Shown: in pieces, positions 9,421 to 35,967 of the stretch
Layout: each line of letters opens with the position of its first letter
Position numbering within the stretch: the first letter of the stretch is position 1
NCBI GenBank assembly: GCA_963849325.1
Contig: CAWKHF010000008.1
Location: 190,609 to 254,608, forward strand
Direction of reading: 5' to 3'
From: an uncultured Planctomycetota bacterium
Lineage (GTDB): Bacteria; Planctomycetota; Planctomycetia; Gemmatales; Gemmataceae
Length of the DNA stretch: 64,000 nt
Translations under genes and position numbers: made by a program
The notes under the pieces: model-generated
Told to the model about the DNA's origin: nothing
The model's input: only the letters and a program-made list of their open reading frames with translations
Database searches by the model: none

Positions 9421-9744
9421 CTACTCAAACTCGTATTCTTCACCTGGCGCATAACGATAATGCCAAACAATTAACTTCGGATCGACCAAGTCAAGTAGAC
9501 TCTCCCCCTCCTTCGGCTCCCGTTCCAAGTTCTCGCCGACGACTAACTGAGTGCCTTCCTCAATCTTTGGTTGATCGAAGAGATAGTGGTGATGATCTCG
9601 CCGGGCAGAGTGCATCTGCGAAACCAATGGTTTTTCAGTTTTCTCGAATCGGACGTCCAAATGGCGAAAGCCAATGGCATGAGGGCATATGGGAGAGTCG
9701 AACTCAACACCGTCCCAGGGGCCGCCATTGAATCGGATTCGCAT
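9421..9744 (-). CDS. Hypothetical protein (first cassette gene, lower GC)
   Basis: 107-aa ORF with RBS GGGAGG and an N-terminal FNGGPWDG motif, lying between the attI-like site and an attC. Confidence 0.65.
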   Translation of the reverse strand: MRIRFNGGPWDGVEFDSPICPHAIGFRHLDVRFEKTEKPLVSQMHSARRDHHHYLFDQPKIEEGTQLVVGENLEREPKEGESLLDLVDPKLIVWHYRYAPGEEYEFE

Positions 9745-9781
9745 TACGCCCCTCCCTTCCGATAGTCATGATCGATCAGGA

Positions 9782-9818
9782 GCCGAACAACTGATTAGAG
9801 CGCACGGCGCGCTCTAAT
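9782..9818 (-). mobile_element. attI-like recombination site
   Basis: Minus strand: ATTAGAGCGCGCCGTGCG-CTCTAAT-CAGTT-GTTCGGC (L box, 5-nt spacer, R box). A further TTAGAGCGCAC copy lies at about 9903. No long attC-type hairpin. Confidence 0.55.
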
Positions 9819-9969
9819 GCGGAAGGTCCAGAACCGTTCCAGACGGCGCAACTTCCGAAGATACCGAACACTGCGCCGATTGTCCAGCAAAACCCGCTGG
9901 GGTTAGAGCGCACCCCAGGGGGAACCTTGTACGGCTCCGAGGGGCGGCAAGGATTTGGACCGCTCGCTC

Positions 9970-12525
9970 TTACAATCCCAGACGCGCATGCACGAGCGCC
10001 AGCGCCTCCTCGATCGATTCGATGCCGAGGACGAGCAGATCGCCGGAGCGGAGATCGGCCAGCGCCGCCTCGATGGCGGGCAGTTCGCCGCGCATCTCGG
10101 TGGTCTCGGTAACGCGGCTACCGGCGGCGATGCCGCGGCGCAGCAGGGCCGTCAACTCGCCGTCGGCGCGGTCGCTGTTGCCCTGGTCCCGATAGAGGAG
10201 GACGCGATCGAAGCCGTCGCCGATGATGCGGCCCATCGCCAGCACATCGGCATCGCGGCGATTGCTGGGGGTGAAGACCAGGCAGCGGCGGCGGTGCGGG
10301 AAGGCGGTCAGCGACTCGACCAGGGCCGCCAGCGCCGAGGGGTTGTGAGCGTAATCGACGATGACCGTGGCGTCGCCGGCGCGGAAGACGTTGAAGCGGC
10401 CGGGCACCTGCCGGGCGTCGCCGGGGAACGAGACCAGGCCGCGACGCACGGCGTCGAGCGGCAGCGCCAGCGACCAGACGGCGGCGACGGCGGCCAGAAC
10501 GTTCTCGACCTGGAAGGCGACGCGTCCGCCGTGCGTCAGCGGCACGCGCTCCAGCGCCGCCAGCACTTCCTCGCGCTCTCCCTCGGCCAGCACGATCTCA
10601 TTGCCGCGGACGAAGACGGCGCGTTCGCCGCGAGCGCGGTGGGCAGTCAGGACCGGATGTGCCGGATCGCGGGCGAAGAAGATCACGCGGCCGGGACAAT
10701 GCGCGGCCATGGCGGCGACGAGCGGCTCGGCGGCGTTGAGCACGGCGGCGCCGTCTGGAGCGACGGCCTCAACCACCGTGCGCTTGACTCGCGCCAGGTC
10801 CTCCAGCGTATCGATGCCGCGCAGGTCCAGGTGATCGCCCTGGCCGATGTTGGTGACGACGGCGACGTGACAGCGATCGAAGCCGAGTCCTTCGCGGAGG
10901 ATGCCGCCGCGCGCCGTCTCCACCACGGCGGCGTCCACGCGCGGATTGAGCAGCAGATTGCGGGCGCTGCGGGCCGCTGCAATCGCGCGCGTCGATACGG
11001 CGGTCGCCGACGTACAGGCCATCGGTGCAGGACATGCCGACGAGTCGATCCGGGCGGCGCAGGCAGGTGCGCGATCAGGCGCGTGGTTGTCGTCTTGCCG
11101 TTGACGCCGGTGACGGCGACGAGCGGGATGCGGCCGGTCTGCCCGTCGGGGAAGAGCAGACCGACGATGGCCTCGCCGACCGGCCGCGGCTTTCCGGCGG
11201 ACGGCTCCAGGTGCATCCGCAAGCCCGGCCCGGCGTTGACCTCGACGACGGCGCCGCGCTGCTCCTCCAGCGGCCGGCCGATGTCCACGGCGACGACATC
11301 GACGCCGGCGATGTCCAGGCCGACGGCGCGGGCCGCCTCGACGGCGCGCGCGGCCGTTTCCGGATGAATCCGATCGGTTACGTCGGTTGCGGTGCCGCCG
11401 GTGCTGAGGTTGCCGTTGCGGCGGATGAGCACGCACTGCCCGGCTGGCGGCACCGAATCCGGCGTGTAACCCTGCTCGGCCAGCACCGCCAGGCCGACCG
11501 CGTCGAGCTTGATGAAGCTCAGCACCGTGGCGTGGCCGTCGCTGCGGCGCGGATCGCGGTTGACCTCGGCGACGAGCTGCGTGATGCGTCGAACGGCCGT
11601 CGCCGACGACGTGGGCCGGCTCGCGCAGGGCGGCGGCGATGAGACGGTCGCCGATGACCAGCAGACGATAATCGGCGCCGGGAATGAACGTCTCGACGAG
11701 GATGCTGGAGCCTTCCTCGCGGGCGGCGTCGTAGGCGCGGACGACCTGCTCGCGCGTGCCCAGGTTGGTGGCGACGCCGCGGCCGTGATTGCCGTACTGC
11801 GGCTTGACGACGACCGGCAGGCCGAGTTCCTCGGCGGCGCTCCAGGCGTCGTCGGCGTCGGCGACGGGCCGGCCCTCCGGCACCGGCACGCCGACCGCGC
11901 GCAGCAGAGTGCGCGTCAACTGCTTGTCCTGGGCGATCATCTCGGCGATGGCACTGGTGCGATCGGTTTCGGCGGTGCAGATGCGGCGCTGCAACGAGCC
12001 GTGGCCGAGCTGGACGAGACTGCCGCTGTTGAGGCGGCGCACCGGGATGCCGCGATCAAGAGCGGCGCGGACGATGGCCGCGGTGCTCGGGCCGAGGCGC
12101 ACGTCGTTGGCCAGCTCGCGCAGCCGAACCAGTTCGGCGGCGAGGTCGAAGGGATGATCGGCCAGGGCGGCCAGGAGGAATTGCCGCGCCGTCTCCAGGC
12201 AGGCGCGGCCCAGCTCCTCCTCCTCATACTCGATGACGACGCGGAAGAAGCCGTCGCGGCCGGTGGGACGAACCAGACCAACCTGGACCGGACTGCCGGC
12301 GAGGCGCTGCAATTCCAGGGTCACGTCGCGGAGAAGGGCGGGCAGGTCGGGTCCGATTGATCGGCCGGCCAGGGACGGCAATTCGGCGCGCAAGCGGGCG
12401 GCGCAGGCGGCGAGCCGCTCGTCGTGTACGGCGGCGAACTCGCCGGCTTCCAGTTCCACCTCCAGCACCGGGCAGCGCGCCGAGATGTTGGCGCCACGCA
12501 AGATCCAGATACGCTGAAATTGCAT
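9970..12525 (-). CDS. cphA: Cyanophycin synthetase (compensating frameshifts at about 11.0-11.6 kb)
   Basis: LGPSTAAIV..LVQLGHG..QRRI, ATP-grasp VVKPQYGNHGRGV, NLSTGGTA, EVNAGPGLRMHL, TGVNGKTTT, ETARGGILREGLGFD, PGRFN and DYAHNP motifs. Confidence 0.92.
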   Translation of the reverse strand: MQFQRIWILRGANISARCPVLEVELEAGEFAAVHDERLAACAARLRAELPSLAGRSIGPDLPALLRDVTLELQRLAGSPVQVGLVRPTGRDGFFRVVIEYEEEELGRACLETARQFLLAALADHPFDLAAELVRLRELANDVRLGPSTAAIVRAALDRGIPVRRLNSGSLVQLGHGSLQRRICTAETDRTSAIAEMIAQDKQLTRTLLRAVGVPVPEGRPVADADDAWSAAEELGLPVVVKPQYGNHGRGVATNLGTREQVVRAYDAAREEGSSILVETFIPGADYRLLVIGDRLIAAALREPAHVVGDGRSTHHAARRRGQPRSAPQRRPRHGAELHQARRGRPGGAGRAGLHAGFGAASRAVRAHPPQRQPQHRRHRNRRNRSDSSGNGRARRRGGPRRRPGHRRRRCRRRGHRPAAGGAARRRRRGQRRAGLADAPGAVRRKAAAGRRGHRRSALPRRADRPHPARRRHRRQRQDDNHAPDRAPACAARIDSSACPAPMACTSATAVSTRAIAAARSARNLLLNPRVDAAVVETARGGILREGLGFDRCHVAVVTNIGQGDHLDLRGIDTLEDLARVKRTVVEAVAPDGAAVLNAAEPLVAAMAAHCPGRVIFFARDPAHPVLTAHRARGERAVFVRGNEIVLAEGEREEVLAALERVPLTHGGRVAFQVENVLAAVAAVWSLALPLDAVRRGLVSFPGDARQVPGRFNVFRAGDATVIVDYAHNPSALAALVESLTAFPHRRRCLVFTPSNRRDADVLAMGRIIGDGFDRVLLYRDQGNSDRADGELTALLRRGIAAGSRVTETTEMRGELPAIEAALADLRSGDLLVLGIESIEEALALVHARLGL

Positions 12526-12539
12526 GTCGATCAAATCCT

Positions 12540-12593
12540 TCCGAGCCTGAAGCGTAAGCGAAGAGCACTCTTCGCTTACGCTTCAGGCTCGGA
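12540..12593. repeat. REP-like palindrome family A, copy 1
   Basis: TCCGAGCCTGAAGCGTAAGCGAAG-loop-CTTCGCTTACGCTTCAGGCTCGGA. Five copies in the window. Confidence 0.95.
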
Positions 12594-12657
12594 CGAAAAC
12601 GTCCTGGCCCCGCCTCACCGAGCTATGTTAAACAGCGGCCCGGAAGACGGAAAGAGG

Positions 12658-12710
12658 CGAGCCGCGAGCGTCAGCGAGCGGGTCAACCCGCCCGTGACGC
12701 TCGCGGCTCG
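12658..12710. repeat. REP-like palindrome (GAGCCGCGAGCGTCAGCGAGCGG type)
   Basis: Inverted arms CGAGCCGCGAGCGTCA / TGACGCTCGCGGCTCG. Confidence 0.85.
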
Positions 12711-12735
12711 GAGGTACTTCCCGGTCAGCGGAACA

Positions 12736-14486
12736 TCAACGGAAGTTGACGCCGATGCGCTCCATCGTGGCGGACGGCTTGATCGTCACGGAGCCGTTGG
12801 ACAGGTTCAGCTCGATGCGATCGGCGGTCACGTCGGCGCACTGGCCGTCCTTGCAATAGTGCAGCACGGCATTGCCTTCGAGGATGAGGCGGTCCTTGCG
12901 GTCGGTGCGGACGCAATCGGCCTTGGCCTTCAGCTGCGACATGCGGACGCATACCCGGTCGTCGCTGCGGGTCAGTGACAACTCGTTGTCACCCAATTTG
13001 ACGATCATCTTCTTGCAGCTCATGCAGGCGTCGTCGCCGACGCTCATTTCAAGCTGCTGGCTGTCGGCGTTGACCACGACACGGACCTTCGTGTCGGCCG
13101 ACGACTTCGCCGCGGTCGTGCTGGTACACGTCAGCACCGGCGTGATTCCATACGTCGGCGTCTCCGTCGGCGGCGGCAGGACCGCGACTTCCCGCGCCGC
13201 AGGGGCGGGCGTCCCCGGATAGCACGGAGCATACTGTGGCGGATGCTGGACATACATATTGTCCGCGGGCGTCGGCTCCGATGGGCCGGGATCGCCGCAC
13301 AGGTCGGCCAGCAGGCCCAGGGCCGACACGCACATCGACGGCAGGGTGGGCGGCTGCACGTGCGAGCTGCAAATGTCCGCGACCATACCCAGCAGCGACA
13401 GGCAGGTATCGATATTCAGGTCCGCATTCGATGCGGCGGGCGCCGGGCACGGCGCAGGGGCAGCACGACCCCGGAGGCAGGGTCATCGGACCACCGTAGC
13501 ACGTCGGCGGCGGCACCGGCAGGGCGACGGTCTGCGGCGGCATCGGCGGCGTCACGCCGGGCGGCACCGGCGGAGGCGGCAACGGGTGCGGCATCATGCC
13601 GTACTCGGGACTCCAGCCGGCGCAAGGCGGCAGCATCGCCGGATTGAAGTGGTATCCGCACGGCAACGGCATCGCCATCGGCCCCATCAGATGCGGCACG
13701 ACCACGATGACCGGCGTGGCAAACGTGGGCTTCTTCCCCTGCTTGCCCTTGTCTCCGCAGCAGCAACCGCAGTCGGCGCCGCACGCTCCCTTGCAGCACT
13801 TTTCCTTGTTTTCCTTGTTGGTCTCGGACTCGCCCTTGCGACGCTCGAATTGGGCCATGGTGATGGCGGCGACGGCCATCGCGTTATCGGGGTCCAACTC
13901 CTTGATACACCGGGCGACGGCTTCGGCCTCGGCGTACTTGCTGCCTTTGAACAGCTCGTTGTACAGTTTCATCAGCTTCGCCACGCTCTTGTTCTTGCAG
14001 CAATCACCGCATTTACAATCCTCCTTGCATTTACAATCATCCTTGCATTTGCAGGCAGTCTTGGTGTTGCAGCACTTCTTGTCCTTGCAGCAGTCCCGCC
14101 GCCGCATCCGTTATCGCAGCAGGCATCCTTCAACTTGCAGCTGGAGCCACAGCAGGTTCCGGTCAACTTGCAACCGGCCACCGGAAAGCCAAAGTCATAG
14201 GTCACGCTCTTCGCAGCGTCATAGTTACGGTCGGTCATGCCAGAGGCGCGGGTCTTGTCGTCCTTGGCGCTGCAGCATTTTTCCTTGCGCAGCAGCCCGA
14301 GCAGGACTCGCCGCCCACGCAGGTGACGGTTGCTTTGTCTTCGCCAACGTAAAAAACGTCGTTGCGATTCACATTCAGGATGTTGCCGCTCGTTTGCTCC
14401 GGGGCCGCACATTGGGAGCGGGCGGTGCCGCTCATCAGGGCCATAGTCGCCGCGAGGATCGCGGTCTGCCAACATTTCACCAACAT
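12736..14486 (-). CDS. Secreted Cys-rich/Pro-rich hypothetical protein (several frameshifts)
   Basis: Signal-like MLVKCWQTAILAATMAL.. after GGAGG, then CC/CxC-dense tracts, a helical hairpin, a Pro-rich linker and a beta-rich C-terminus. Pieced together from four overlapping ORFs. Confidence 0.6.
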
Positions 14487-14560
14487 AGGTCGAGCCTCCT
14501 TGCCGAGGGGATAAGTACACCTCGTTCGGGGCGGGACCATAGCAAAGGCGGTCGGTGCTG

Positions 14561-16182
14561 TCAGCACCAGTCCGGGACATCCAGGAATTGCGTGCAGAAG
14601 GGACGTAGGATATTTGCGGGGAACAGGCAAAAGGCGTAATCGCGTCGCTGCAAGACGGCGTTGGCGCGCAACTGCCGCGTGCATCGTGCCAGCTCGCGGC
14701 GCAGTTGTTCCTCGCGCGGATGCAGAAAGCGGCGCAGTTCGTCGGTGAGTTCCCGCAACACTCGGCAGCGTTCGCGGCGTTCGGCGGCGGTCGCCGGCTC
14801 GCGCGCGATCCACGCTTGCTTGCGCGCGGCTAACTCGGCGGCGTCGCCGTCGCTCGCGGCCTCCTCGAGATGACGCTGCGGATTGTAATGCACGTCGCGC
14901 ACGGCACGGGCCAGGCGGCGACGGTCTTCCGCCGTCACCGCGGCGCGCGGCAGCGGCAGCCAGCGCGTCGCCGACAGCACGAGGTAGATAGGCGGCTCGC
15001 AGTCGTAGAAGACGGCGGATCAGCTCATCGGTCAGTTCGTCGTATTTGCCGCCGCCGATGCCGTGCATGAACAGGTCGGCCAGGAACAGCCGGGCGTACA
15101 GCGTCGTCGTCAGCGCCCGGCTGCGGACCTTGAAGCCCTGCGATTCCAGCCCTTGCCACGTCTGGACCGCCGCTTGTGGCTCGACGCGGCAACGACGGCC
15201 AGCGGTCTTCGCCGGCACGCAGTTCCAAATGATCTCCGCCGATGCGGGCGAACAGCCGCTCTCGACGGCGAGCCGCCGGCACGCCAGGCCCAGAACGGCG
15301 CCTCCAGCCAGTCGCCCTCGGCGGCGAGGTCGGGCACCGGATGATTGCGGCTGCGGATGCCGTGGCGACGGCGATAGTCCTGGACAACCGCGTTGTACAG
15401 CGTGTGAAAACGCGGCAATTCGCGCCAGCAGATGACAGGCGAACCAGGCGAACGGCTCGGTGCGGCAGAGCGGCTGAGCGGCACTTCCAGGTTGTGACAG
15501 CCCCAGCGCGCGCTCGAACGTCCGCCGCGCCGCCGCGAAGCACTCGCCCAGGAGCGGCGTCCGTTCCGCCTGCCGCAGCACCTCGGCCCAGAACGCCGGC
15601 AGCATCGGCTCGTAGGACCAGCCGCCGCAGCAATTCGCCGGCCCGCTCGGCGAAGCTGGCGAACAGCTGTCTCGATCCGCGATCGTCCGCTCCTCGTAAG
15701 GGACCTCGCCGCTCCAGCGGTCGAACGGCACGCTCCGCAAGTGCGGCCGGTCCTCCGGCTGCGCCGCAGGCGCGGGGAGGCGAAGAGCCGTCGTCTTGAC
15801 CGTGTCGTTATCGACGACGAGGTTGAGCGGCGTTGCGCCGTGCGCGCGGGCCAGGCCGTACAGGGCGAAGTTCTTGACCCAGACGCCGGGATGGAACAAC
15901 TCCGGCTGATGCCCCGCGACCAGTAGCGTCGTGCTGGTCGAATCGCGGATGTCGGCGGGTCGGCATTCTCGCCGAGATATTCGAGCGGCGGCAGCGACGG
16001 CGTTCTGGCGAGCCTGGCGGCGCAGGTCGGTCCAGGGCCGGCCGAGCAAGGTACGGTCCGTCCGCGTGGGCATGCAGGCGCTGGCGGTTGATCGCCAGCG
16101 CGGTGCCGGCCTCGTGCAAGGGCGGTTCGGCGACGACGGCTCCGTCGTCGTCCGGGGCACGCGGGACGGTCCGCTCGCTCAC
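14561..16182 (-). CDS. Uncharacterised protein with GHQPELFHPGVWVKN and HGIGGGKYD motifs (frameshifted)
   Basis: Protein-like segments run across frames from a GTG at 16182, overlapping the GT2 stop, to TGA at 14561. Confidence 0.7.
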
Positions 16183-16950
16183 GGACAGGTCCTCTTGAAT
16201 GCCGAGTGCAGAAAGCAGAAGGACAGATCTTCTCCGGCATGGCGCATTCGGCCTTCGACAGCGGTTCCGCCTCGGCGGCGGCGATGACCTGGCGATAGTA
16301 CGCCAGGCGCTCGGCCGCGTCGTCGAGCACGCCGCCGAAGGCGCGGTTGGGGTCGAGGTACAGCCGCGGCACGCCGACTTCCTTGATGCGCAGGCCCAGG
16401 CGGGCGGCCTGCACCCACAACTGCAACGGCATGCCCCAGCCGGTTTCCGTGATGTGCAGGCGTTCCAGCGCCTCGCGGCGGTACGCCTTGAAGCCGCAGA
16501 AGGCGTCGGTCAGGTGCAGGCCGAAGCGTCGATTCAACTCGGCCGTGATCTCGCTGTTGATGCGGCGGCGGTCCTGCGGCGCCAGCGTGTCCTGGCGGAA
16601 GTCGCGCAGGTAACGGCTGCCGGAGACGATGTCGGCGTCGTGGATCGCTTCCAGCAGCACCGGGATGCGCGACGGCTCGTGCTGGCCGTCGCAGTCCATG
16701 GTCACCAGCACGTCGATCGCCTCGCCGGCGGGCGTAGGCGAAGGCCGAGATCAGGGCCGCGCCGTAGCCGCGGTTGGCCGGGTGCGTGATGACCTCCAGG
16801 TCCGTCCTGCCGGGCCAGGATGTCGGCCGTGCCGTCGGTCGAGCCGTCGTTGACGACGAGGATGTGCGGGCTGTAACGCCGCACCTCGCGCAGGACGCTC
16901 TCGACGTGACGCGCTTCGTTGTAGACGGGGATGGCGGTGAGGACCTTCAT
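16179..16950 (-). CDS. Glycosyltransferase family 2 (DPM1-like), frameshifted
   Basis: IPVYNE, VVNDGSTDGT, TMDCDGQH, IVSGSR and TDAFCGFKAY motifs. Confidence 0.9.
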
Positions 16951-17240
16951 GCCATGCGATTCCTTGTTCGGGGCGACGAGGGGCATCCCTTGTTCTTCAT
17001 TCTAAGGAGGCCGTGCGCGCGAAGTCAAAAAGCTCGCATACCTCTCCGGGAGCCGCGCAGGCAATCCCGGTTTGACAGGACGAACGGTGCGAAAGGCGGG
17101 CCGCGGCTGTCAAAATGGCGGCACGAATCGCCTCCTCCGTGCTCTTGCGTCAAACCTCAGCCGAGAGGGTTTTTCCCAAGTTCTTGCCGCATAATGGCTT
17201 GATAATGGGGCCGTCCCAGCGTCTCCAGTTGGAAAATTCG

Positions 17241-17256
17241 TGGCACGTTCCTTGCT
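17241..17256 (+). promoter_or_regulatory. Sigma54 (-24/-12) promoter
   Basis: TGGCACG-TTCC-TTGCT matches the RpoN consensus, about 135 nt upstream of the Hsp20 pair. Confidence 0.8.
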
Positions 17257-17389
17257 TTCTATCTGGAGGCGGCACACGTCAAGGCCGCCTTGGACAGAGA
17301 CGCTTAACACACGCAACATCTTCATCCCGAGGGCGGTCGCGGATTGCCGCGTCCGAATTGTGGACATCGAGAAACGAAGGAGTTGGAAC

Positions 17390-17836
17390 ATGAGATCATC
17401 GCGTTGGCAGTCGTTCAACCCGGTTTGGAATCAGTTGCAGCAGTTCCAGGAGGAGATGAACCGTCTGTTCCATCGCTGGAACGTCGGCGACTCGTTCGCC
17501 GGGCCGGCCACTTTCCCGCCGCTGAACGTGTGGGAGGACGGCGAGGAGGTCCACGTCGAGGCCGAGCTGCCGGGCCTGGACCTCAAGGACCTGGAGATTT
17601 ACGTCAGCGGCGGCAATCAGCTGACCGTCAAGGGCGAGCGCAAGCCGTTGGTGCCGGGCAAGGGCGTATGGCATCGGCAAGAGCGGGCCTTCGGCGCCTT
17701 CACGCGCACGTTGACGCTGCCGTTCCCGGTGGACGCCGACAAGGTCGATGCCCGTCTGGAGAACGGCGTACTGCACGTCCAGCTGACCAAGCACGAGTCG
17801 GCCCGGCCGCGCAAGATCCCAGTCAAGGCGGAGTAA
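17390..17836 (+). CDS. Hsp20/alpha-crystallin small heat shock protein
   Basis: FPPLNVWED..AELPG..ERAFGAFTRTLTLP..A.LENGVL motifs. Confidence 0.95.
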   Translation: MRSSRWQSFNPVWNQLQQFQEEMNRLFHRWNVGDSFAGPATFPPLNVWEDGEEVHVEAELPGLDLKDLEIYVSGGNQLTVKGERKPLVPGKGVWHRQERAFGAFTRTLTLPFPVDADKVDARLENGVLHVQLTKHESARPRKIPVKAE

Positions 17837-17877
17837 GTTGATCCGTAAAGAGGAAACAAGAGAAGGAGAAACCGATC

Positions 17878-18276
17878 ATGGCGAACATCACGAATACCCC
17901 GACGAAAGACCGAGCGGAGGCGGCGCTGCCCGAGGTGACGCGCGGCGGCGTCCACTTCACGCCGCGGGTGGACATCTTCGAGAGCGATGCCGAGCTGACG
18001 CTATACGCCGAGGTGCCCGGCGTGCGATCCGAGGACGTCGATCTGCACTACGAGCAGGGCGAGTTGGTGCTGCACGCGCGGGTGCAACCGCGTCGCGGCC
18101 AGCAGCCGGTGCTGTTGCAGGAGTACGAGGAAGGCGACTTCTATCGCGCCTTCGCCATCCACGAATCGATCGACGCCGGCCGGATCAGCGCCGAGTGCAA
18201 GAATGGCGTGCTGACGGTACATCTGCCCAAGGTCGAGTCGGTTCGGCCGCGACAGATCACCGTGCGCGGCGAGTGA
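17878..18276 (+). CDS. Hsp20/alpha-crystallin small heat shock protein
   Basis: TPRVDIFE..AEVPGV..FYRAF..A.CKNGVLTVHLPK motifs. Confidence 0.95.
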   Translation: MANITNTPTKDRAEAALPEVTRGGVHFTPRVDIFESDAELTLYAEVPGVRSEDVDLHYEQGELVLHARVQPRRGQQPVLLQEYEEGDFYRAFAIHESIDAGRISAECKNGVLTVHLPKVESVRPRQITVRGE

Positions 18277-18277
18277 T

Positions 18278-18414
18278 CGTGTTTAAAAAAATGAACCACG
18301 GATAACACGGATAAAAGACAAAAATAGAGAAAGAGACCGGAAGGGAACGTTCCTCGGTATCATTTTTCTTTTTGTGTTTATCCGTGTTATCCGTGGTTCA
18401 TTTTTTTAAACACG
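18278..18414. repeat. AT-rich 38-bp perfect inverted repeat (CCACGGATAACACGGAT core), probable bidirectional terminator
   Basis: Arms 18278-18315 and 18377-18414 are exact reverse complements, lying between convergent genes. Confidence 0.9.
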
Positions 18415-20536
18415 GCAGTTCTGTCGTGGCCGCGTGGGCGCGGTTGCGAACAAGGAGGTCAGCGTCTCGGGGTCGGCGGGCTTGACGAGATGATGGTCGA
18501 AGCCGGCCTCGCGCGAGCGGCGCAGGTCCTCAGCCTGTCCGTAGCCCGTCAGGGCCACCAGCAGCGGCTGGGATCCCGGCCGTGCCCGCAGTCGTCGCGC
18601 CACCTCATAGCCGTCCATGCCCGGCAGGCCGATGTCCAGCAGCACCACCTCCGGCTCGAACGCCTCGGACTCGACCAGGGCGGCCGGCCCATCATGACAG
18701 GTCCGTACCTCATGTCCGACTAGCTCCAGCACCATCGCCAGGCTCCGCGCCCCGTCGGCGTTGTCGTCCACGATGAGCACTCGACTGCGCTGAGGCTGGG
18801 CCGCCGGCTTGGCGGAGCCGTTGACCGGCGGAGGCAGCCCCTCGGACAGGACCGGCAGATACACCACGAACTCGCTGCCTCGGTTCGGTCCTTCGCTGAA
18901 CGCTTCCACTCGTCCGCCGTGCAGCTCGATCAGCTTGTGTACCAGTGTCAAGCCAATGCCCAGCCCTCCCTGGGCGCGGTCCAGCGAGCGATCGACCTGC
19001 GTGAACAGCTCGAAGATCGACGACAGCATGTCGGAAGGGATGCCAACGCCGTTGTCCTGGATGCGCAGGACCACCTCGCCGTCGTGCGCGCTGCGCCGCC
19101 AGGGCGATGCGGCCGCCCTCCTCGGTGTACTTGGCGGCGTTGTTGAGCAGGTTGGCCAGCACCTGGGCCAACCGCACCGGGTCGCCGCGCACCAGGAGCG
19201 GCTCGGACGGCAGCAGCACCGTCAGCTCGTGCTTGCGCGCGTCCAAGAGCGGCCGGCTCGTCTCGACGGCGCGGGCGATGACGCCGGCCAGGTCCACGCA
19301 CTCCTCCTGCAAACGAATCTTGCCGCGCGTGATCCGCGACAGGTCGAGCAGGTCGTCCACGAGCCGCACCAGCTGCTGCACTTGCCGGTCGATCATGTCC
19401 TGGACGGCGCGGACTTCCGGCTCGTCGCCGCCGCGCAGGCGGAGGACCTGAACGGCGTTGCGGATGGGGGCCAGGGGGTTGCGCAGCTCGTGGGCCAGCA
19501 TCGACAGAAACTCGTTCTTGTGGCGGTCGGCCTCCTGGACGTTGTGGTACAGCCGAGCGTTGTCCAGGGCGATGGCGGCGCGTCCGGCCAGGTCTTCGGC
19601 CAGGGCCAGGTCGGCCGGACCAAAGCGACGGCCGGAGCTGCCCTGTCCCAGAGTCAGGGCGCCGAGGGTGCGGCCGCGAGCCTGGAGCGGCAGCAGGACG
19701 GCGGAGTGAAGCCTTTCGCCCTCGCCCGCCGGCTCGTCGCTGCGCAGGCCGTCGGCGGGTACGGCACGGCCAGATCGTTCAGGGTCTCGGCCTTGCCGGA
19801 GGCGAGAACGCGCTCCAGCGCCGCCCGCACCTCGTCGGCGGGGCCTTCGGAGCCGGCCAGCGAACCGAAGCAGATCGATTGCGCCGCCGAGGAGAACCAG
19901 GCCAGTTCGCTTCGCCACGTCGGACTCGTCTCGCCCAGCAGTGTGACGCCGGCCACGTCGGCCAGGTACGGCACCACCAACCGCAGCAGGCCGCGCAGCG
20001 TCGCCTCGTAGTCGAGCGAGCTGGACAGCACCGTGCTGGCCTCGGCCAGGAAAGCCAGGCGCCGCGTGGCCTCCTCGGCGGCGGCGCGGGCGGCCTGCTC
20101 GCGCGCCAGGGCCACGCGCTCGTCGGCCTGCTGCCGCGACCTGCTGCGTCATGCGATACAGATCGACGAATACCTTGACCTTGGTGCGCAGGATCTCCGG
20201 CACGACCGGCGACAGGATGTAATCGACCGCTCCCAGCGAGTAGCCCTGGGCGGTGTGCATTTCGTCGGCGAAGGCGGTGACGAAGATGATCGGCGTGTGC
20301 GCCGACTTGCGGCGCTGGCGGATCAGCGCCGCCGTCTCGAAGCCGTCCATGCCCGGCATGTTGACGTCGAGCAGGATGACGGCGAAGTCGTGCTCGAGCA
20401 CGCGGCGCAGCGCCTCCTGCCCGGAGCTGGCCGTGACGACGTTCTCGTCCAACTCCTCCAGGATCGACTCCAGGACGAGGAGCTTTTCCGGCAGATCGTC
20501 CACGATCAGGATGTTGATCTTGTCGGCGTCGCCCAT
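18406..20536 (-). CDS. Hybrid sensor kinase REC-GAF-HisKA-HATPase-REC (frameshifted)
   Basis: ILIVDD..LLDVNMPGMDG, LAHELRNPL, NLLNNAAKYT, GGLGIGL and a terminal LLDIGLPGMDG. Confidence 0.92.
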
Positions 20537-20584
20537 GACCCTCCAGCTTAGCACCAGGCCTCCCGAGGTTACACCCCCAAAGAA

Positions 20585-20687
20585 GGGAATAGGGAATAGG
20601 GAGTAGGGAATAGGGAGTAGGGAATAGGGGCAAGAGAAGAAGGAGCCTCACACCTATTCCCTATTCCCTATTCCCTATTCCCTATTT
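20585..20687. repeat. Inverted heptamer arrays (GGGARTA)6 ... (CCTATTC)5
   Basis: Read directly. Same unit as 7289-7323. Confidence 0.95.
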
Positions 20688-20690
20688 CTG

Positions 20691-27069
<6,379 letters not shown>

Positions 27070-27324
27070 GAAAACTTCTCCCCAAAGCGTCGTTGCCAAT
27101 CGGGGCCGCCAAGCCAAGGACGCTCAGCGGGTTGGGTCGTGCTCCGTGCAAATGACGCGCCCGGCGCGCGGACGCTCGCGTGCCGAGGGCTGCCATAGAC
27201 CCCGTTGAGTGCGTTTGGATGGTGGCAAGTATAGCTTATTCTCGTTGGTCCAGCAATGGTAAGTCCCTATCGGACAAGCTCTAACTCAGGAATGGCGAGG
27301 GGAATTACGGCTTCGGGGCCGACC

Positions 27325-28673
27325 TCACGCCAGTTCGATTCGCTGGTGCGTGATGCGCTGCGCGTCGAACACGCCCAGGCCCAACGTCTCGGCCAGGGGA
27401 ATGTGCTGCGGCTGGCGGATGTGCAGCTGTTCGGGATAGGGTTTGCCGTCGATCTGGGCCACGCCGCTCGCGCATCCAGTCCCATCGCCGCGACGACCGG
27501 CCAGCCCTCCTCGACCCGTTTGCGATCGATAATGTCCCAACCGACGTGGTCCAGCGCCACCGGATCGGTGGCGAACAACAAGCTGTTGTAACGCCAGGTG
27601 GCGAAGGTCTTGTTGGAGGTCTGCGGGCCGCCCTCCCAGGTGCCGACCAGGCCGTCGAGGATGTGCAGCACCGCCTTGGTTCGGGTGGCCGGCAGCGAGG
27701 CCATGGTCGGGATGAACGTGCCGCACTGGTTCAAGGTGCCGCCCGGCTTGTCGGCCGGCCGCTGTTTGCCGTAGAGGATGTGACTGCGGCAGACGTTGTT
27801 GACCAGGCCGTGCGACAGGTCCTTCAGCGCCAGCGTCACGCCCGACGAGCGATGGTCCTTCAGCACCGGGATGGTGATGAGCTTGTCGATCTTCCGCGAC
27901 ACGATCGTCGTCAGGTGCGAGCGGAAACGGCGGTCGTCCTTGGGGTCGTGCTGGGGATGGCAGTAGGCGACCTCGCGGTAGATGTCCGGGTCGTAGCCGG
28001 CGACGTGGTCCTCGCGCGGTTGGCCGGGCAGTTGGCCGTCGATCTCCAGTTGCAAGTCGTCATAGCGGGCCGAGGCGCATTCCCAGTACACGCCGTCGGG
28101 CAGTGTCTCGGGATAACCGCACAGCAGGAACTCGTGCTTGTAGCGCTCGAAGACGAGGATGTCGCCGGCGCGGACGCCGGCGGCGCGCAGGCCGTCGATG
28201 ACTTCCAGCACCACCTCGTAACTGGAGATGGAGTCGGGCCGACCGACGGGCACCACCTTGATGCCGACGCGATCGCCGGGAGAGAAGAAGCGGCGCCAGG
28301 CTTGCACGGCGTCCTCGCTGCCGGTCAATTCGGTCATGCCGCGGTCGATCATGGCCTTGATGGCCTCGCGGTTGCGTTCGCTGTAGCCGTTGTTCTTCTT
28401 ACCGGCCCGCACGGCGCCGGCGTGACGTACCTCAATGACGCGGCCGGGGAACGGACCCGGCATCGCCGGCGGATTGCTCGCCGCGATGGTGGGCGCGGCG
28501 AGAGGAGGGCCGCCGCCCGGTTGGGATTTCGAGGTCGCCAGTTGTCGGCCGACCCAGCCCGCCGCCGCGCCTCCCACGGCGCCCAGGGCCGCACCGGCCA
28601 GGAAGATCCGGCGCGTGCAGCGCGGACCGGCATTCATCGCGGGAGGGATGGGCCGGGGGTTTTCGTCGGACAT
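27325..28673 (-). CDS. DUF362-domain protein with Tat signal (frameshift near 27470)
   Basis: TRRIFL Tat motif; DRVGIKV, IPVLKDH..GVTLALK, ILDGL and ATDPVALD motifs. Confidence 0.85.
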
Positions 28674-28782
28674 GGTGTCGCTCCTGGCGTTCTGATTGTC
28701 CAGTCTTCGTCGAGGCGTGGCGAGGCGTACCCCCACTCTACAGCCGCCGATGAGCGATGGTAAAGGGCTGTAACCGATCCTT

Positions 28783-28999
28783 CGTAGACGAAGTCCCAGA
28801 TTTCATCGAACTGGAGCCGCTGACAGGTCAGGTTCCGCATAACTTCATGCTGGAAGCGCGCGAGACGCGGCCCGCATCGATCAACAGATTCGTCACGGTA
28901 TTGATCGACACTCCGACCATACGGGACGTGGATCGGAGGAGCAATCCTCGGTCAAGGCCCGGAGGATGGCGCTGCGGCGTTCTAGGGGAGACGATTCAT
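28783..28999 (-). pseudogene. IS1-family transposase N-terminal remnant
   Basis: Reconstructed across frameshifts as MNRLPLERRSAILRALTE...RSTSRMVGVSINTV (HTH)...MRNLTCQRLQFDEIWDFVY (first D of DDE), then cut off. Confidence 0.8.
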
Positions 29000-29354
29000 A
29001 TTGACATTTTGCTTGAGAACCAGCCCCACGGTCAAGGTCCGTAGGTATTGATTCGCAAACAGTCAAGGGTACAATGAGGCAGAAGTCTTTTACGGAAAAA
29101 GGCTTGCGAAAGAAGCTTGATCGCTGCGCAACCGGGAGAGAAAATCCGATTGAACCACCACTGAATTTTTGTATCATTGCTCATTTGTCCCAGCCGTACC
29201 AGCACCGCAAGCGAGGAGAGTCGCCATGCCCGAAGGGGTGTCTGGAGTTTATTTCAGTAGGAGTCGCCCGAATGTCGATCTCCGGATAAAAGCCGGACTG
29301 CCAAGACGCCACTTCGTTGACCGGATGGTCCCTAACAGGACGAGAGGAGCCAGG

Positions 29355-29807
29355 ATGGCGATTAACGAGCCTCTGCTTCCGGGGCTTGGCGGCGGCCCTT
29401 CCGTGATCGCAAGTCAAGCTGCCATCGAGTTGGATCATCTTTTGCTGGGCCGAGCGTCCGGCCTATTTGCCGTCCAGAAACTTGCCGAGTTGATCGAAAG
29501 CGAGTTCCAGACGGGTACGGGCACCGGGACGCATTCGCACGGTGCGGCTGCGGTCGGTGTGATGAGACGCGCCCTCGCTGCGGCCAACGGCGGCACTCCC
29601 CCAACGTCGCGGGTTGATGAGGTAGTGACCCAGGCGGGACAGGTCACGCAGTCTCTGAAAAGCATCGTCGCTGACCCGGAAGGGTTCAAGAGGAAGAATC
29701 CCGCCGAAGTGGCAAGGATGCGGTCCTTCTGCGTTGCTTACTCTGAACAAGCTTCCGGGGCCAAGAGGCTACGAGGCAACAGACCACCGCGTCGTCACAG
29801 GAGGTGA
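29355..29807 (+). CDS. Hypothetical helical protein (passenger gene A)
   Basis: GAGGAG RBS, 150 aa, ends 3 nt before the next start codon. Confidence 0.7.
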   Translation: MAINEPLLPGLGGGPSVIASQAAIELDHLLLGRASGLFAVQKLAELIESEFQTGTGTGTHSHGAAAVGVMRRALAAANGGTPPTSRVDEVVTQAGQVTQSLKSIVADPEGFKRKNPAEVARMRSFCVAYSEQASGAKRLRGNRPPRRHRR

Positions 29808-29810
29808 AGC

Positions 29811-31078
29811 GTGTTTTTGTTGAGGTACTCCCGAGAACGGATCGGGGAAATCCTCGCGGAAATCAAGCGGGTAGGCGAAGCAGAGTTCGCCTATGAGCAG
29901 CCAAAAAAGCTCCTCCAAGAACTCGAAACCCTCTTCCGAAACAACCTCTCGTATCTCAACACGCTAGACGATAAAAGCGATCCAAATACAGTCAAGACGG
30001 CTTGAGCCAGCGCTCTCGGCTTGATATTCGACTACCTGCCGGTAACTGGCATAGTTCTCAGGTCTACTCAAGTCCGGAACGCATTTGAAGTTTATGGACC
30101 GCTCCTGCGGCTTGCTCGCGCTGTCCTTGAACCCGGTGTTCCTCACGACCAAGCGAAAACGCAATTGGTTCTCTCCTCCGGTTGGGAATACTCGCCCCTG
30201 ATGTACTCTGTCGCTCAGGACCTACCCGACTTCGTACTGATCGAGTTCCCAGCACCAGAGTCGTCCAACCCGCTACTACTCCCTCTCGCCGGTCACGAAT
30301 TAGGACATTCGGTATGGCTAAAGCGTGGGCTTGAGCAGTCGCTTGAGGCTGAAGTGCATCGACAAACCGTCAAGTCCATAGGGAAGGAACTCGCGGCATT
30401 TAAGCAAGTGTTCAAACTCCTGCCTACGGTGACGGCCACGGACCTAGAAAACGACGCGGATATCGTTCAACTCTACGAGCCGTCTGAAATATGGTTGATG
30501 TCGCAAGCGATGGAGACTTTCTGCGACTTCATTGGACTTCGCATATTCGGAATCTGTTTTCTCCGGGCCTTTTCTTATCTACTAGCGCGCCGTGCTTTGC
30601 CGGCGAGCGCAGCGAGTTCTACCCGAACATGGTGCCGCGCGTGAACAACCTTCTTGTAGCCGCGGCGAAGTACCAGCTTAGCCCGCCTCCGGGTTATGTG
30701 AGTCTGTTCAAGAACGATACGGAGCCGCCGCTTACGGACGCTAATAAGTTTCTGATCAAGATAGCTGATCTTTCCCTTAACGGCCTTGTAAAACAGCTCG
30801 CTAAAGAGGCTGACTCGGTTGTCGCGCAATCGGGCCTAGCCTCATCCACCCCAGACCAAGTTAGCCGCCTTGCCAAACGCATGCGATTGATCGTGCCGGG
30901 AGAAAACGCTTGTGGGCTGCCTGATATTGTCAACGCGGCTTGGCAGCTCTACGATGCACCCGACCTTTGGAAAGAGGTTCCTGAGATACACGAGAAAAGG
31001 GATCGAGTATTAAAGGAACTTGTCCTGAAGAATATTGAGATTTTTGAGATTGAACAACGATTAAGAGGTGCCCCATAG
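29811..31078 (+). CDS. HEXXH putative metallopeptidase-like protein (passenger gene B; in-frame TGA at 30003, frameshift near 30590)
   Basis: ORFs 29811 and 30021 are in the same frame. GHELGH is followed by ETFCD. The frame continues as APCFAGERSEFYPN to TAG 31078. Confidence 0.75.
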
Positions 31079-31696
31079 ATGATCCGCGCTAATGAAATTC
31101 ACAGGCTGATTGACGAGGGAAACAAGCCAAAAACCAAAGACCCTCTAGTGATAACCCCGCGGCCAATCATTTCTGATGCCGGGTCAGCCTCGGTTGACCT
31201 TCGCCTAGGAACGTGGTTCGTCACGCTACGACAGGCGCGCATGCTCTGCCTCAGAGCGGACGAAATGCACGGCGAGCAGTTGACAAAGACCCGATACGTT
31301 CCTTTTGGAGAGGAATACTATCTACACCCTCGCAGTTTCGTGCTGAGCGTCACGCTCGAATGGATACGCCTGCCAAGGGAGTTCGGTGCCTACGTTACCG
31401 GCCGATCCAGCTGGGGAAGACGCGGGCTAATCATTGCTACCGCTACGGGCGTGCATCCTGGATTCACCGGCTGTCTGACCCTGGAACTGACGAACGTGGG
31501 GGAGATACCTATAGCTATCTCTCCGGGGATGGCGATATGCCAGTTGTTCTTGCACCGGGTCGAGGGGTCAATCCAAGGGACGATGGACCGAACACAGTTT
31601 TCAGGAAGTCGGAAGCCCGCGCTGGGTGACGTAAAATCGGATGACTTCGCCCGCAAACTCCGCGGATCAGCGTCCGCGATCACTGGTCAGCCTTGA
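31079..31696 (+). CDS. dcd: dCTP deaminase, trimeric dUTPase-superfamily type (divergent)
   Basis: ASVDLRLG, TLEWIRLP, GRSSWGRRGL, PGFTGCLTLELTNVG and PGMAICQLFL motifs. The ATG abuts the gene B stop. Confidence 0.88.
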   Translation: MIRANEIHRLIDEGNKPKTKDPLVITPRPIISDAGSASVDLRLGTWFVTLRQARMLCLRADEMHGEQLTKTRYVPFGEEYYLHPRSFVLSVTLEWIRLPREFGAYVTGRSSWGRRGLIIATATGVHPGFTGCLTLELTNVGEIPIAISPGMAICQLFLHRVEGSIQGTMDRTQFSGSRKPALGDVKSDDFARKLRGSASAITGQP

Positions 31697-31947
31697 CCAT
31701 GCGCTTTGGCCGACTTTTTCCACCTGGCCTGCGCCGCTTTCCTCGCAATGTCGCAACGTCGTTTCTGGGTTAACCGCTTTGCCCGCGCCTTGCCGTCCTT
31801 TTGGCCCCCAAGCTGGCCTCGCGCAACGTCTTTCCCCGCTTCCGGGTCAGGCGTCTTTGGAGTCTGTCCGGTAGCTTCCTTGACGATCCGGTGCGCCAAG
31901 GCGTTGATGTCCTCGCGGACCTTCGGCTTCTTTCGCTGCTTCACCAT
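31687..31947 (-). CDS. Small basic IS-associated protein
   Basis: DINALAHRIVKEATG...GGQKDGKARAKRLT..RR.DIARKAAQARW, located just inside the IS end. Confidence 0.7.
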   Translation of the reverse strand: MVKQRKKPKVREDINALAHRIVKEATGQTPKTPDPEAGKDVARGQLGGQKDGKARAKRLTQKRRCDIARKAAQARWKKSAKAHGQG

Positions 31948-32051
31948 CACCCGACGCTACCGGAAACTGGGCCAAGCGGGAAGAGAGAAGTCGGGTTGGG
32001 ACAGTTCAAACTGAGACACTACCCGGTAGTTCTTATCGAAGTGGATCGCGG

Positions 32052-32081
32052 TTGACACCGCGAAGACAGTCGGGCTATAAC
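32052..32081 (+). promoter_or_regulatory. Sigma70-type promoter for the LPS cluster
   Basis: TTGACA-N18-TATAAC upstream of lpxK. Confidence 0.55.
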
Positions 32082-32236
32082 ACCGTTCGCTTGGCGGGCC
32101 GCACACCGCCCGTCGTAGGAACGAGGACGTAAGGATATGTCCTGTCGTTCATGCCTTTGGACCCGAAAAAGGGGATGGACCCCCGTTGTTCGCACCCGGC
32201 GTCCCAACCTGTGCCGTCCCTCCCTCGACCCTGCGA

Positions 32237-33367
32237 ATGAGCGGCGGTTCGCGTAACCATTACCTGCGTCTGCTGTCCGGCGAAGCGCGCGGCCTGTGGC
32301 CGGCACTGGAGCGGCTCGGCCTGCACGCGGCCAGTCTGCCCTACGGCCTGGCCGTGCGGCTCCGCAATGCCGCCTATCGACCGCGGCTGGCTGCGCAGCG
32401 AGCGCGTGCCGGTGCCGGTCGTCAGCGTCGGCAACCTGACCGTCGGCGGCACCGGCAAGACGCCGTGCGTCGAGTACGTCGCCCGCTTCTACCGCGGCCT
32501 GCGACCTGCGCGTGGCCATCCTCAGCCGCGGCTACGGCGGCGCCGGCGGCCGCAACGACGAGGCGCTGGTGCTGGAAGAGAACCTGCCCGACGTGCCGCA
32601 CCTGCAAGGGGCCGACCGCGTCGCCCTGGCCCGCACCGCCGTCGAGGAGCTGGAGAGCGAAGTGCTGGTCCTCGACGACGGCTTCCAGCACCGCCGGCTG
32701 GCCCGCGACCTCGACCTGGTGCTGATCGACGCGACGCGCCCCGTGGGGCCACGGCTACCTGCTGCCGCGCGGCCTGCTGCGCGAGCCGCCGCGCGGCCTG
32801 CGACGGGCCGGCGTCGTCGTCCTGACGCGCTGCGATCAGGTCGGCGCCGGAGCAGCGCCAGCGATCTGCGGCAGACCAGTCGCCCGCCTCGCGCCGGGCG
32901 TGCCGGTGGTCGAGACGAGCGCATCGGCCCGGTCGGGCTGGTCAACAGCGACGGGCGAGGCTGCGCCGCTGGACGTGCTGCGCGGCCGGCCGGTGGCGGC
33001 GTTCTGCGGCATCGGCAACCCGAGGCGTTTCGCCGCACGCTTGCTCGACCTCGGGCGCCGACGTGCATCGCCTTCCGCGCCTATCCCGACCATCACGCCT
33101 ACGACCGCGACGACGTCGAGGACCTGCGCCGCTGGGCCGCGAGCGCTGCCCGACGGCGCGCGTGGTCGTGACCACGCAGAAGGACCTGGTCAAGCTGCGG
33201 CTGTCGCGCCTCGGCGACCGGCCGCTGTGGTGCGCTGCGCATTCGGCTCCACGTCGAGTCCGGCCAGGACGTTCTGGACGGCCAGCTGCGAATCCGTCCT
33301 TCCGCCGTCCTCACCCCGACCGCTCTCCCCCGAATCGGAGGAGACGGTAGGCGTGAGCGGAGGCTAA
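32237..33367 (+). CDS. lpxK: Tetraacyldisaccharide 4'-kinase (multiple frameshifts)
   Basis: [52 protein letters not shown] and TTQKDLVKL motifs. Confidence 0.9.
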
Positions 33368-34466: not shown

Positions 34467-35967
34467 ATGTCGAGCCGACCTTGATCGAGCTGGTGCAGCA
34501 ACCTCGGCCAGCCGCGCGTGCTGGTCGTCGGCGACCTGATGCTCGACCGCTACGTCTGGGGCGACGCCGAGCGCATCAGCCAGGAGGCGCCGGTCATCCT
34601 GCTGCACGCCGACCGGCGCGAGGAGCGCCTCGGCGGCGCCAGCAGCGTCGCCACCATGCTGCGCGCCCTGGGCGCCAGCGTCGCGCTGGCCGGCGTCGTC
34701 GGCGACGACGCCGACGGCGGCCGCATCCGCCGACTGCTCGTCGACCTGGGCATCGACGACGAGGCCGTCGCTGACCGATCCCGACCGGCCCAGCACGGTC
34801 AAGGAGCGCTACATCGGCCGGGCCCAGCACCGCCATCCGCAGCAGATGATCCGCGTCGATTACGAGGTCCGCACGCCGCTGGCGACGCGCGTCGAGACGT
34901 CGAGCTGCGCCAGGCCATCGCACGGCAGCTCGCGCCAGGCCGACATCGTGCTCATCAGCGATTACGACAAGGGCGTCTGCACGCCGGCGCTGCTGGCGGC
35001 GATCATCGCCGCGGCGCCGCGCCTGCGGCGTGCGCGTCGCTCGCCGACCCGATCCGCGGCAGCGATTATCGCAAGTACCACGGCTGCTCGGCGATCACGC
35101 CCAACCGCCTGGAAGCGGGCCTGGCGACCGGCCGCGTCGCTCGACGACTCGGCCGACGGCGCTGGCGGCCGCCGCCGAGCTGCGCGAGCAGCTCGACCTG
35201 GAGGCGGCCATCGTCACGCTCGACAAGGAAGGCATGGCGCTGGCCCACGCGACGGCCGGCGCCGAGGTGTTCCCGACCCGGCCGCGGCAGGTCTACGACA
35301 TCACCGGCGCCGGCGACATGGTGCTGGCCGTGCTCGGCATGGCCCTGGCCGCCGGCGCCGACTACGACCCGGCCATCCGCCTGGCCAACATCGCCGGCGG
35401 CCTGGAAGTCGAGAAGATCGGCGTCGCCACCGTGACGCGCGACGAGATCCTGCACGACCTGCTCGCAGGCGGCCGGCGGCCGGGCACGGGCCGGGCTGGA
35501 CAAGGTGCGCGTCGCGCGAGTCGCTGCGCCGCGAGCTGGAGCAGCGCCGGCGCCTCGGCCAGCGCGTCGCCTTCACCAACGGCTGCTTCGACGTGCTGCA
35601 CGCCGGCCACGTGCAGTATCTGCAGGAGGCCCGCGCCCAGGCCGACCTGCTGGTGGTCGGCCTCAACAGCGACGCCAGCGTGCGAGCGCTCAAGGGGCCG
35701 GACCGGCCGGTCAACCCGTCGAGGCCCGCGCCCTGGTGCTGGCCGCCCTGGAAGCGGTCGATTACCTGACCGTCTTCGACGAGCCGACGCCGCTGGAGCT
35801 GATCCACGACGTTGCGCCCCGACGTGCTGGTCAAGGGGGCCGACTATCGCCGCGAGGAGGTGGTCGGCGCCGAGTTCGTCGAGTCCTACGGCGGCCGCGT
35901 CCACCTCGCGCCGCTGCGCGCGGGATATTCGACGACGCGCCTGTTGCAGCGTCTGGGTGCGGCGTGA
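34467..35967 (+). CDS. hldE: Bifunctional heptose-7-phosphate kinase / heptose-1-phosphate adenylyltransferase (frameshifted)
   Basis: [58 protein letters not shown] and KGADY motifs. Confidence 0.93.

Follow-up and report, generated by a model that had tools for sequence, protein, structure and literature searches.

A conserved three-gene cassette that couples a HEXXH protein to a divergent dCTP deaminase: a possible anti-phage nucleotide-depletion module

A 64,000-nucleotide stretch of contig CAWKHF010000008.1, from an uncultured Planctomycetota bacterium (hereafter the window), carries a three-gene cassette that encodes a small helical protein (gene A), a HEXXH protein (gene B) and a divergent deoxycytidine triphosphate (dCTP) deaminase of the Dcd family (gene C). 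An earlier reading of the letters alone, referred to below as the original prediction, had described three tightly coupled plus-strand genes, lower in guanine-plus-cytosine (GC) content than their flanks, as a candidate nucleotide-depletion defence system. The coupling and the lower GC content are confirmed. All three genes are on the plus strand, with 3 nt between A and B and 0 nt between B and C, and the GC content of positions ~28800–32000 is 0.51–0.62, compared to 0.65–0.77 on either side. The features of the cassette and its immediate surroundings are listed in Table 1.

Table 1. Positions in the window of the cassette genes, their motifs and adjacent features (ORF, open reading frame; aa, amino acids)
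Feature	Position	Strand	Details
Gene A	29355–29807	plus	Helical-bundle protein, 150 aa; stop codon 29805–29807; predicted partner of B (synteny, complex model)
Gene B	29811–31078	plus	GTG start 29811, stop 31076–31078; HEXXH...E...D family of ~420 aa; interrupted twice
In-frame TGA in B	30003–30005	plus	Mostly-Cys column of the family (C69 of protein P0001)
HEXXH codons of B (H-E-L-G-H)	30294–30308	plus	Family alignment
E-T-F-C-D of B	30513–30527	plus	Candidate third metal ligand Glu (30513–30515) and conserved Asp (30525–30527)
Frame change in B (gcgCGccg)	30585–30592	plus	Two extra bases or one missing base
Gene C	31079–31696	plus	Divergent homotrimer-type dCTP deaminase (Dcd family), 205 aa, intact; PF22769, TIGR02274
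S110...R114 codons of C (GRSSWGRRG)	31406–31420	plus	Aligned to E. coli Dcd S111 and R115
E136 codon of C (TLELTN)	31484–31486	plus	Aligned to E. coli Dcd E138, taken to be catalytic
Low-GC islet	28700–32100	n/a	Between DUF362 gene (27267–28736, minus) and lpxK (from ~32367); GC and Pfam flanks
Short decayed ORFs	28634–29177	minus	Stops and frame changes in translation
Lys/Arg-rich ORF, 87 aa	31687–31950	minus	Convergent, 10-nt overlap with the end of C; weak PHROG match (3e-05)

The assignment of gene C to the Dcd family, made in the original prediction, is borne out by profile searches. C matches PF22769 at 2.2e-29 (103 bits against a cut-off of 27) and TIGR02274 with 113 bits, above the cut-off of 92.8, and it matches the structures of Escherichia coli Dcd at 3e-23. 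In the E. coli enzyme we take S111, R115 and E138 to be catalytic, D128 to belong to the sugar site, and Tyr171, Lys178 and Gln182 to form the lid. What C has in common with E. coli Dcd (PDB 1xs1/2j4h; TIGR02274, PF22769) is the fold family and the residues aligned to S111, R115 and E138, which are kept in 59/59 C proteins from cassettes, the window's included. Unlike the E. coli protein, C has a His in place of D128 and a replaced C-terminal motif. The His is found in 57 of the 59 cassette proteins, and the usual lid pattern (Tyr...Lys-Tyr...Gln) gives way to F-x-G-x-R-K-P...D plus an extra helix. Among 15 non-cassette Dcd rows, by comparison, the lid Tyr is retained in 15/15, the Lys in 14/15 and the Gln in 15/15.

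The cassette C proteins also stand apart from housekeeping Dcd as a group. Scored against the C protein of the window, they give 175–202 bits, while non-cassette Dcd proteins of the same lineages give 32–55, and the dcd products of the relatives 38–55. A quick maximum-likelihood tree built from 75 rows places all 59 cassette proteins on one side of a branch with a Shimodaira–Hasegawa-like approximate likelihood-ratio test (SH-aLRT) value of 94, and phyla are intermixed among them. A separate housekeeping dcd of ~190 amino acids is present in 14/14 relatives searched, and 5/5 isolate genomes with the cassette also hold separate dcd and dut-type genes. Thus, unlike housekeeping Dcd, C is an accessory paralogue in a clade of its own, additional to the housekeeping gene, and it is always coupled, sometimes fused, to B.

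Two observations on dcd genes outside the cassette can be added here. The housekeeping dcd of this genome (locus L002, G000:C12:298429-301725, minus strand, ~135–1935) has an intein-like insert after the motif GKSTYAR; the insert includes an HNH-type endonuclease stretch, and the gene is spread over three frames in the assembly. In same-genus relatives the dcd, ~190 amino acids long, is uninterrupted. One such relative (L121, G011:C418:1066-4623) additionally encodes a very divergent DCD-family protein of 242 amino acids, which lies outside both the cassette clade and the housekeeping clade.

Gene B belongs to a large and unnamed family. A search of a word-indexed collection gave at least 303 matches among longer proteins, none with a Pfam domain, and among 1.84 billion clusters at 50% identity the family has 1,384 representatives at E ≤ 0.001 (707 at 1e-30). 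None of the models in PADLOC 2.0.0, Pfam, NCBIfam or PHROG names it. The motifs GHELGH and ETFCD, named in the original prediction, are present (the latter as METFCD) and are kept almost without exception: in the family alignment, HEXXH is found in 252/252 members, the downstream Glu in 251/252 and the Asp in 252/252. Judged by motif, HEXXH with a downstream Glu is a zincin signature. The predicted structure of B (mean predicted local distance difference test score, pLDDT, of 93) has an N-terminal three-helix bundle, a core and a helical C-terminal domain; in the modelled core, two strands are followed by the HEXXH helix and a later helix that bears the E...D pair.

The description of B as peptidase-like fares less well. 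The HEXXH...E...D motif argues in its favour, whereas no convincing fold or profile match to a solved peptidase emerged. The top row of a Foldseek search of the PDB is Ste24p at E 0.73, with nothing at E ≤ 0.001. Structure comparison with VIA gives a weak match to Ste24p (Z 5.2, root-mean-square deviation 8.2 Å, 203 residues aligned), and the VIA searches are dominated by generic helical-bundle rows for residues 1–150. Compared with PDB sequences, the B profile returns chance-level rows only, and the Pfam M48 model matches 2/70 members of the family (best E 0.029). The nearest named Atlas clusters carry U49/M48 (score 0.79), which we treat as a lead only. The HEXXH motif in a conflict-type context is something that B has in common with Lit (peptidase U49, prophage e14) and the M48 zincins; unlike these, B adds helical domains of its own at both termini and is obligately partnered by A. 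We considered and rejected identity with Lit/U49: an hhalign comparison with E. coli Lit aligned 21 columns around HEXXH, with a probability of 0.4% and E 0.15.

Gene A is less conserved than B. Its family, of ~140 amino acids, has a mean column identity of 27% (alignment of 74 sequences), compared to 48% for B. Iterating a local profile over the ORFs that precede B recovered relatives of A; the word-index search returned A alone. Conserved features are an invariant Cys (C126) in an F-C motif and a C-terminal tail resembling RPxHPxRR. The model of A consists of six predicted helices (pLDDT 87.5). Searches of Pfam, PADLOC, NCBIfam and PHROG gave no match, nor did a Foldseek fold search. A wide search with VIA placed FliS-type chaperones on top (Z 7.0–7.9), below the level expected beyond a common helical arrangement.

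To see how widely the three genes occur together, we scanned a collection with one genome per species and obtained 80 loci with B. Judged by record titles, these span at least 13 phyla, including Planctomycetota, Acidobacteriota, Verrucomicrobiota, Nitrospirota, Chloroflexota, Actinomycetota and the Alpha- and Gammaproteobacteria. The A–B–dcd synteny seen in the window recurs across this set. A homologue of C lies downstream of B in all 71 loci with room for it, and is adjacent to B in 70 of these; at L075 the two are separated by 1.16 kb. An A-like ORF is found just upstream of B in 79/80 loci, the sole locus without one being L060, where the B ORF extends 83 amino acids further upstream. Most intergenic distances fall between −4 and +6 nt. 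Beyond A–B–C, neighbours are common only among close relatives. The exception is an extra gene of 107–126 amino acids, without a Pfam match, directly upstream of A in six alphaproteobacterial cassettes (L068:5130-5453, L077:5112-5459, L078:5133-5513, L082:5110-5460, and also L072 and L080). It could encode an additional, fourth member of the module or else regulate the other three.

B and C are also found as single chains. At L026, one protein of 620 amino acids comprises both, with the dCTP_deam domain at residues 434–605, and in protein P0123 B at residues 1–417 is fused to C at 437–638. A wider set of long proteins (P0126, P0127, P0129, P0131, P0132 and P0133; 535–728 amino acids) combines an unnamed N-terminal region of ~350–550 residues with a C-terminal Dcd. 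A single N-terminal HEXXH is present in 7/7 long Dcd proteins examined in this size range. Weak similarity to the core of B is seen in P0127, P0129, P0131 and P0133 (535–718 amino acids), hence in some members of this wider group only.

A predicted complex of A, B and C from locus L009 points to a direct A–B contact. With A as the partner, the interaction prediction score from aligned errors (ipSAE) is 0.77, compared to 0.01 for the best of three controls; the mark used is attained by 58/80 solved complexes and 2/110 mismatched pairs, a calibration that holds only roughly here, as the prediction was made with self-built alignments and with three chains. Contacts coincide between runs to at least 75%, and partner pLDDT is at least 76. 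Every confident contact that A makes in the model is with B. On the side of A, the predicted interface is made by the conserved first helix and the F-C helix; on the side of B, by residues 41–70 of the N-terminal bundle together with residues 176–226. The mostly-Cys column of B and the invariant Cys of A both fall within modelled interface helices, and neither is among the named contacts.

The cassette is patchily distributed. Among 60 relatives of the window's genome, B was found in one (G027, in which it is in two pieces), and it was found in 0/10 same-genus genomes. B is present on 10 conjugative Rhizobium plasmids of 414–685 kb, where A and B are annotated as 'hypothetical' and C as 'dCTP deaminase'. 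It is absent from 50,697 phage records. Intact cassettes occur in cultivable isolates of Rhizobium, Neorhizobium, Methylocystis, Brevundimonas and Sphingomonas, among them Methylocystis sp. JAN1 and Brevundimonas abyssalis TAR-001.

We then compared the flanks of the cassette with known defence models. ORFs of at least 110 amino acids within 4.5 kb of the cassette were searched against PADLOC (E ≤ 1e-10) at 63 of the 80 loci, leaving out duplicate Rhizobium loci, short contigs and L079–L083; as a control, the same was done for 16 preset 9-kb stretches from four complete genomes. PADLOC matches were obtained for 47/374 flanking ORFs versus 4/110 control ORFs (Fisher P = 0.007). Counted by locus, 29/63 cassettes and 4/16 control stretches have any match, a difference that is not significant (P = 0.16). 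Genes that are, by our own judgement, clearly defensive occur at 17/63 loci and in 0/16 control stretches (P = 0.017), the four control matches all being to generic domains. The clear cases comprise restriction types I, IIG, III and IV, DISARM DrmA, Kiwa KwaB and Lamassu LmuA, and further ones are PDC-S70, SoFic accompanied by NACHT, and the CBASS-type regulators CapP/CapH accompanied by an E1-E2-like gene.

Three of these neighbourhoods can be described individually. At an acidobacterial locus (L008, 519–3993), genes for CapP/CapH-like regulators and an E1-E2-like gene adjoin the cassette. In Brevundimonas (L077, 1519–5104), the adjoining genes are capP-like and E1-E2-like, and a capH match is absent. 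On the Rhizobium phaseoli plasmid pRetR611c (L126, record 9571–28785), the cassette has a Fic-family gene, SoFic-like by PADLOC, on one side; on its other side is a trio encoding an S8 peptidase, a trypsin-like peptidase and an AAA ATPase, the first with a NACHT-like match.

Does the cassette correspond to a system already described? A, B and C have no match in PADLOC 2.0.0 at E ≤ 0.1, and in the full-text literature searched a HEXXH protein coupled to a Dcd-fold deaminase is nowhere described, in keeping with the earlier remark that the combination was not recognised as a named system; overlap with the candidate lists of DefensePredictor is possible. One known system invites comparison, namely the defensive dCTP deaminase AvcD, reportedly also studied by Hsueh et al. 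This enzyme is a single protein of 576 amino acids, kinase-like at its N-terminus, that also has a zinc-dependent domain of the cytidine-deaminase fold (Tal et al., bioRxiv 10.1101/2021.04.26.441389). The two systems are alike in their proposed outcome, deamination of deoxycytidine nucleotides that depletes dCTP in infection, and in their genomic association with defence genes. They differ in architecture: AvcD has a cytidine-deaminase fold and a kinase-like domain, whereas C has a Dcd/dUTPase-like fold, two partner genes and no kinase. Since C carries DCD/dUTPase-family domains only, the 'different deaminase fold' of the original prediction stands. The DefensePredictor paper lists 'a dUTPase' among predicted defence domains that await validation.

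In the window, gene B is broken by a TGA codon (30003–30005) and by a frame change (~30585–30592), so the earlier view that it needs repair in silico was correct. Taken in order, its three pieces match uninterrupted relatives of ~420 amino acids over their whole length. Other genes of the genome are similarly affected. Beside the islet, lpxK (32367–33367) is spread over three frames and rfaE (34518–35769) is split over at least two, and SelA, on another contig (G000:C12:1294197-1295291), is in three pieces; frame changes also occur inside the intein of the housekeeping dcd on contig 12. Because genes such as lpxK, rfaE and SelA are also in pieces, the assembly (14 contigs, 84.7% 'complete') seems rich in insertion and deletion errors, a property that touches every assignment of a pseudogene here. 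As evidence of a pseudogene, B's frame change is therefore unsafe, and it may itself be an assembly error.

The state of B raises two readings that concern this copy in particular. One is that the window holds a decaying remnant without present function here, irrespective of the family's role in other organisms. The two interruptions of B are what one would expect of such a remnant, the genome holds no second copy, and in G027, the sole relative with the module, B is likewise in two pieces; yet the ORFs of A and C are unbroken, the error-rich assembly may itself have produced the frame change, and decay would bear on this copy alone, not on the nature of the module. We regard this as quite improbable. 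The other is that the TGA encodes selenocysteine at a normally-Cys, possibly redox-active position. The codon sits exactly at a column with Cys in 229/252 members (91%), SelA is encoded in the genome, and in the complex model the column lies in an A–B interface helix, opposite the helix with A's invariant Cys. However, no SECIS-like fold is seen in the 60 nt that follow the TGA, which compare no better than shuffled sequences (z −0.58; 49/200 as good), there is no Rfam match in positions 28500–32300, and a single base change turns a Cys codon into TGA. Furthermore, the other locus with a suggested break, L012, reads TGC at the codon (which was read there only), and the break flagged there is a false call, B being open. 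These data make selenocysteine highly improbable.

What might the module do? We favour a self-contained module that moves horizontally and whose effector, a Dcd-fold deaminase, is controlled by an A–B complex, most likely for anti-phage nucleotide depletion, and we put the chances of this reading at about even. It draws on several observations (synteny, fusions, retained catalytic residues, a distribution that is patchy and includes plasmids, a Dcd clade of its own, and flanks with more defence-model matches than the control) and on the modelled A–B complex; from these we infer the defence role, and with it a trigger, a substrate for B and a direction of control. In such a module C, the likely effector, would convert dCTP to deoxyuridine triphosphate (dUTP), and this conversion would both starve replicating phage DNA and load it with uracil. 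B would be a zincin-like HEXXH...E...D metallohydrolase, bound to the fast-evolving A through its N-terminal helical bundle, and the A–B pair would either restrain C or switch it on. Control might be exerted by proteolysis of a tail by B, as A and C both have conserved ends containing Arg-Pro, or alternatively by direct contact of A–B with C. We more tentatively propose, with somewhat less than even confidence, that A–B–Dcd is a new anti-phage family, in which a zincin-like hydrolase, bound to a fast-evolving helical sensor, controls a homotrimeric Dcd that on infection would turn the dCTP pool into dUTP, and thus a second, independent form of dCTP-depletion immunity on a different fold. Such a family would have spread by plasmids and islands over at least 13 phyla, and would include single-chain HEXXH–Dcd fusions too.

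Several points weigh against a defence module of this kind. Fold comparison of the predicted B structure leaves a protease unproven, and in the L009 complex contact of C with A or B was not scored. The separate position of C comes from a quick tree search only, and C scores above the NCBI equivalog cut-off for ordinary dCTP deaminase. In the flank scan, the control is small, the list of clear defence genes is our own, and the comparison by locus for any PADLOC match falls short of significance. B is in pieces in 9/70 loci that span the whole B match (a tenth, L012, was flagged falsely), and in the window as well, where the TGA may mean that the copy is inactive, or the breaks may in part be assembly errors. 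Finally, by Pfam, the window copy adjoins housekeeping genes rather than defence genes.

Two alternative functions need to be weighed against anti-phage nucleotide depletion. Because C passes the curated NCBI cut-off for dCTP deaminase, with its catalytic residues kept, a metabolic role retains some plausibility: the cassette would be an accessory pyrimidine-metabolism module in which C makes dUTP, B hydrolyses a nucleotide (e.g. dUTP or dCTP to the monophosphate) and A is structural. Some zincin-like HEXXH proteins are said to hydrolyse nucleotides, fusions such as B–C are also typical of consecutive pathway enzymes, and the window copy is flanked by housekeeping genes. We nevertheless consider this unlikely, as the cassette isolates (5/5) and the relatives searched (14/14) already have a housekeeping dcd, the module is patchy (1/60 relatives) and plasmid-borne, its flanks vary by genome and are enriched in defence-model matches, and A evolves fast, with the mean column identity of 27% given above against 48% for B.

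A toxin–antitoxin-like addiction module, or one serving conflict between elements, is a minority possibility of somewhat greater weight; here the module would stabilise plasmids and islands, C would be the toxin, A–B its control, and there would be no dedicated anti-phage role. The operon is compact and translationally coupled, it is carried on large conjugative plasmids and in Rhizobium has a Fic protein next to it, B is often found in pieces, and A and B are predicted to pair tightly. Yet B is lost while C is intact in the window and, judging from ORF lengths only, in L027, L050 and L083, which argues against B as an essential antitoxin. Because C outlasts B in these copies, their state fits B as an activator or sensor more than as an antitoxin. 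Many copies are, moreover, chromosomal and adjoin restriction and other defence genes. Addiction and defence are mutually compatible roles in any case.

Nucleotide depletion is an established immune strategy, and the known bacterial dCTP deaminase effector has a cytidine-deaminase fold. If the anti-phage reading of A–B–C is true, the core metabolic Dcd fold would have been recruited convergently into immunity, and two unnamed protein families, of which B alone has ~1,400 clusters at 50% identity, would gain functions. It would also mean that many genes automatically named 'dCTP deaminase' are not housekeeping genes, a caution for annotators. With intact cassettes available in cultivable isolates, the hypothesis is directly testable.

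The original prediction placed the cassette on an insertion sequence, inside a mobile element. Closer inspection of the islet led us to reject this. One ORF among the short decayed ones upstream of A may resemble the start of a transposase and could be a remnant of one; these ORFs (28634–29177) have no Pfam match at E ≤ 0.01. The islet flanks contain no convincing terminal inverted repeats, and no tRNA gene is present in the whole window. The 705 bp before A (28650–29354) and a 68-amino-acid ORF (28634–28840) are single-copy in the genome. The DUF362 neighbour is matched at only 45–55% identity, in 3/10 same-genus genomes, so that no orthologous empty site could be aligned.

Downstream, the 87-amino-acid ORF convergent with C has no support as part of the module, there being no conserved neighbour beyond A–B–C across loci. 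Outside the islet, on the minus strand (24565–27117), there is an ORF of 850 amino acids that consists almost entirely of tandem HAMP/HAMP_2 repeats, with at least 6–7 matched stretches, and whose end runs into a shifted frame.

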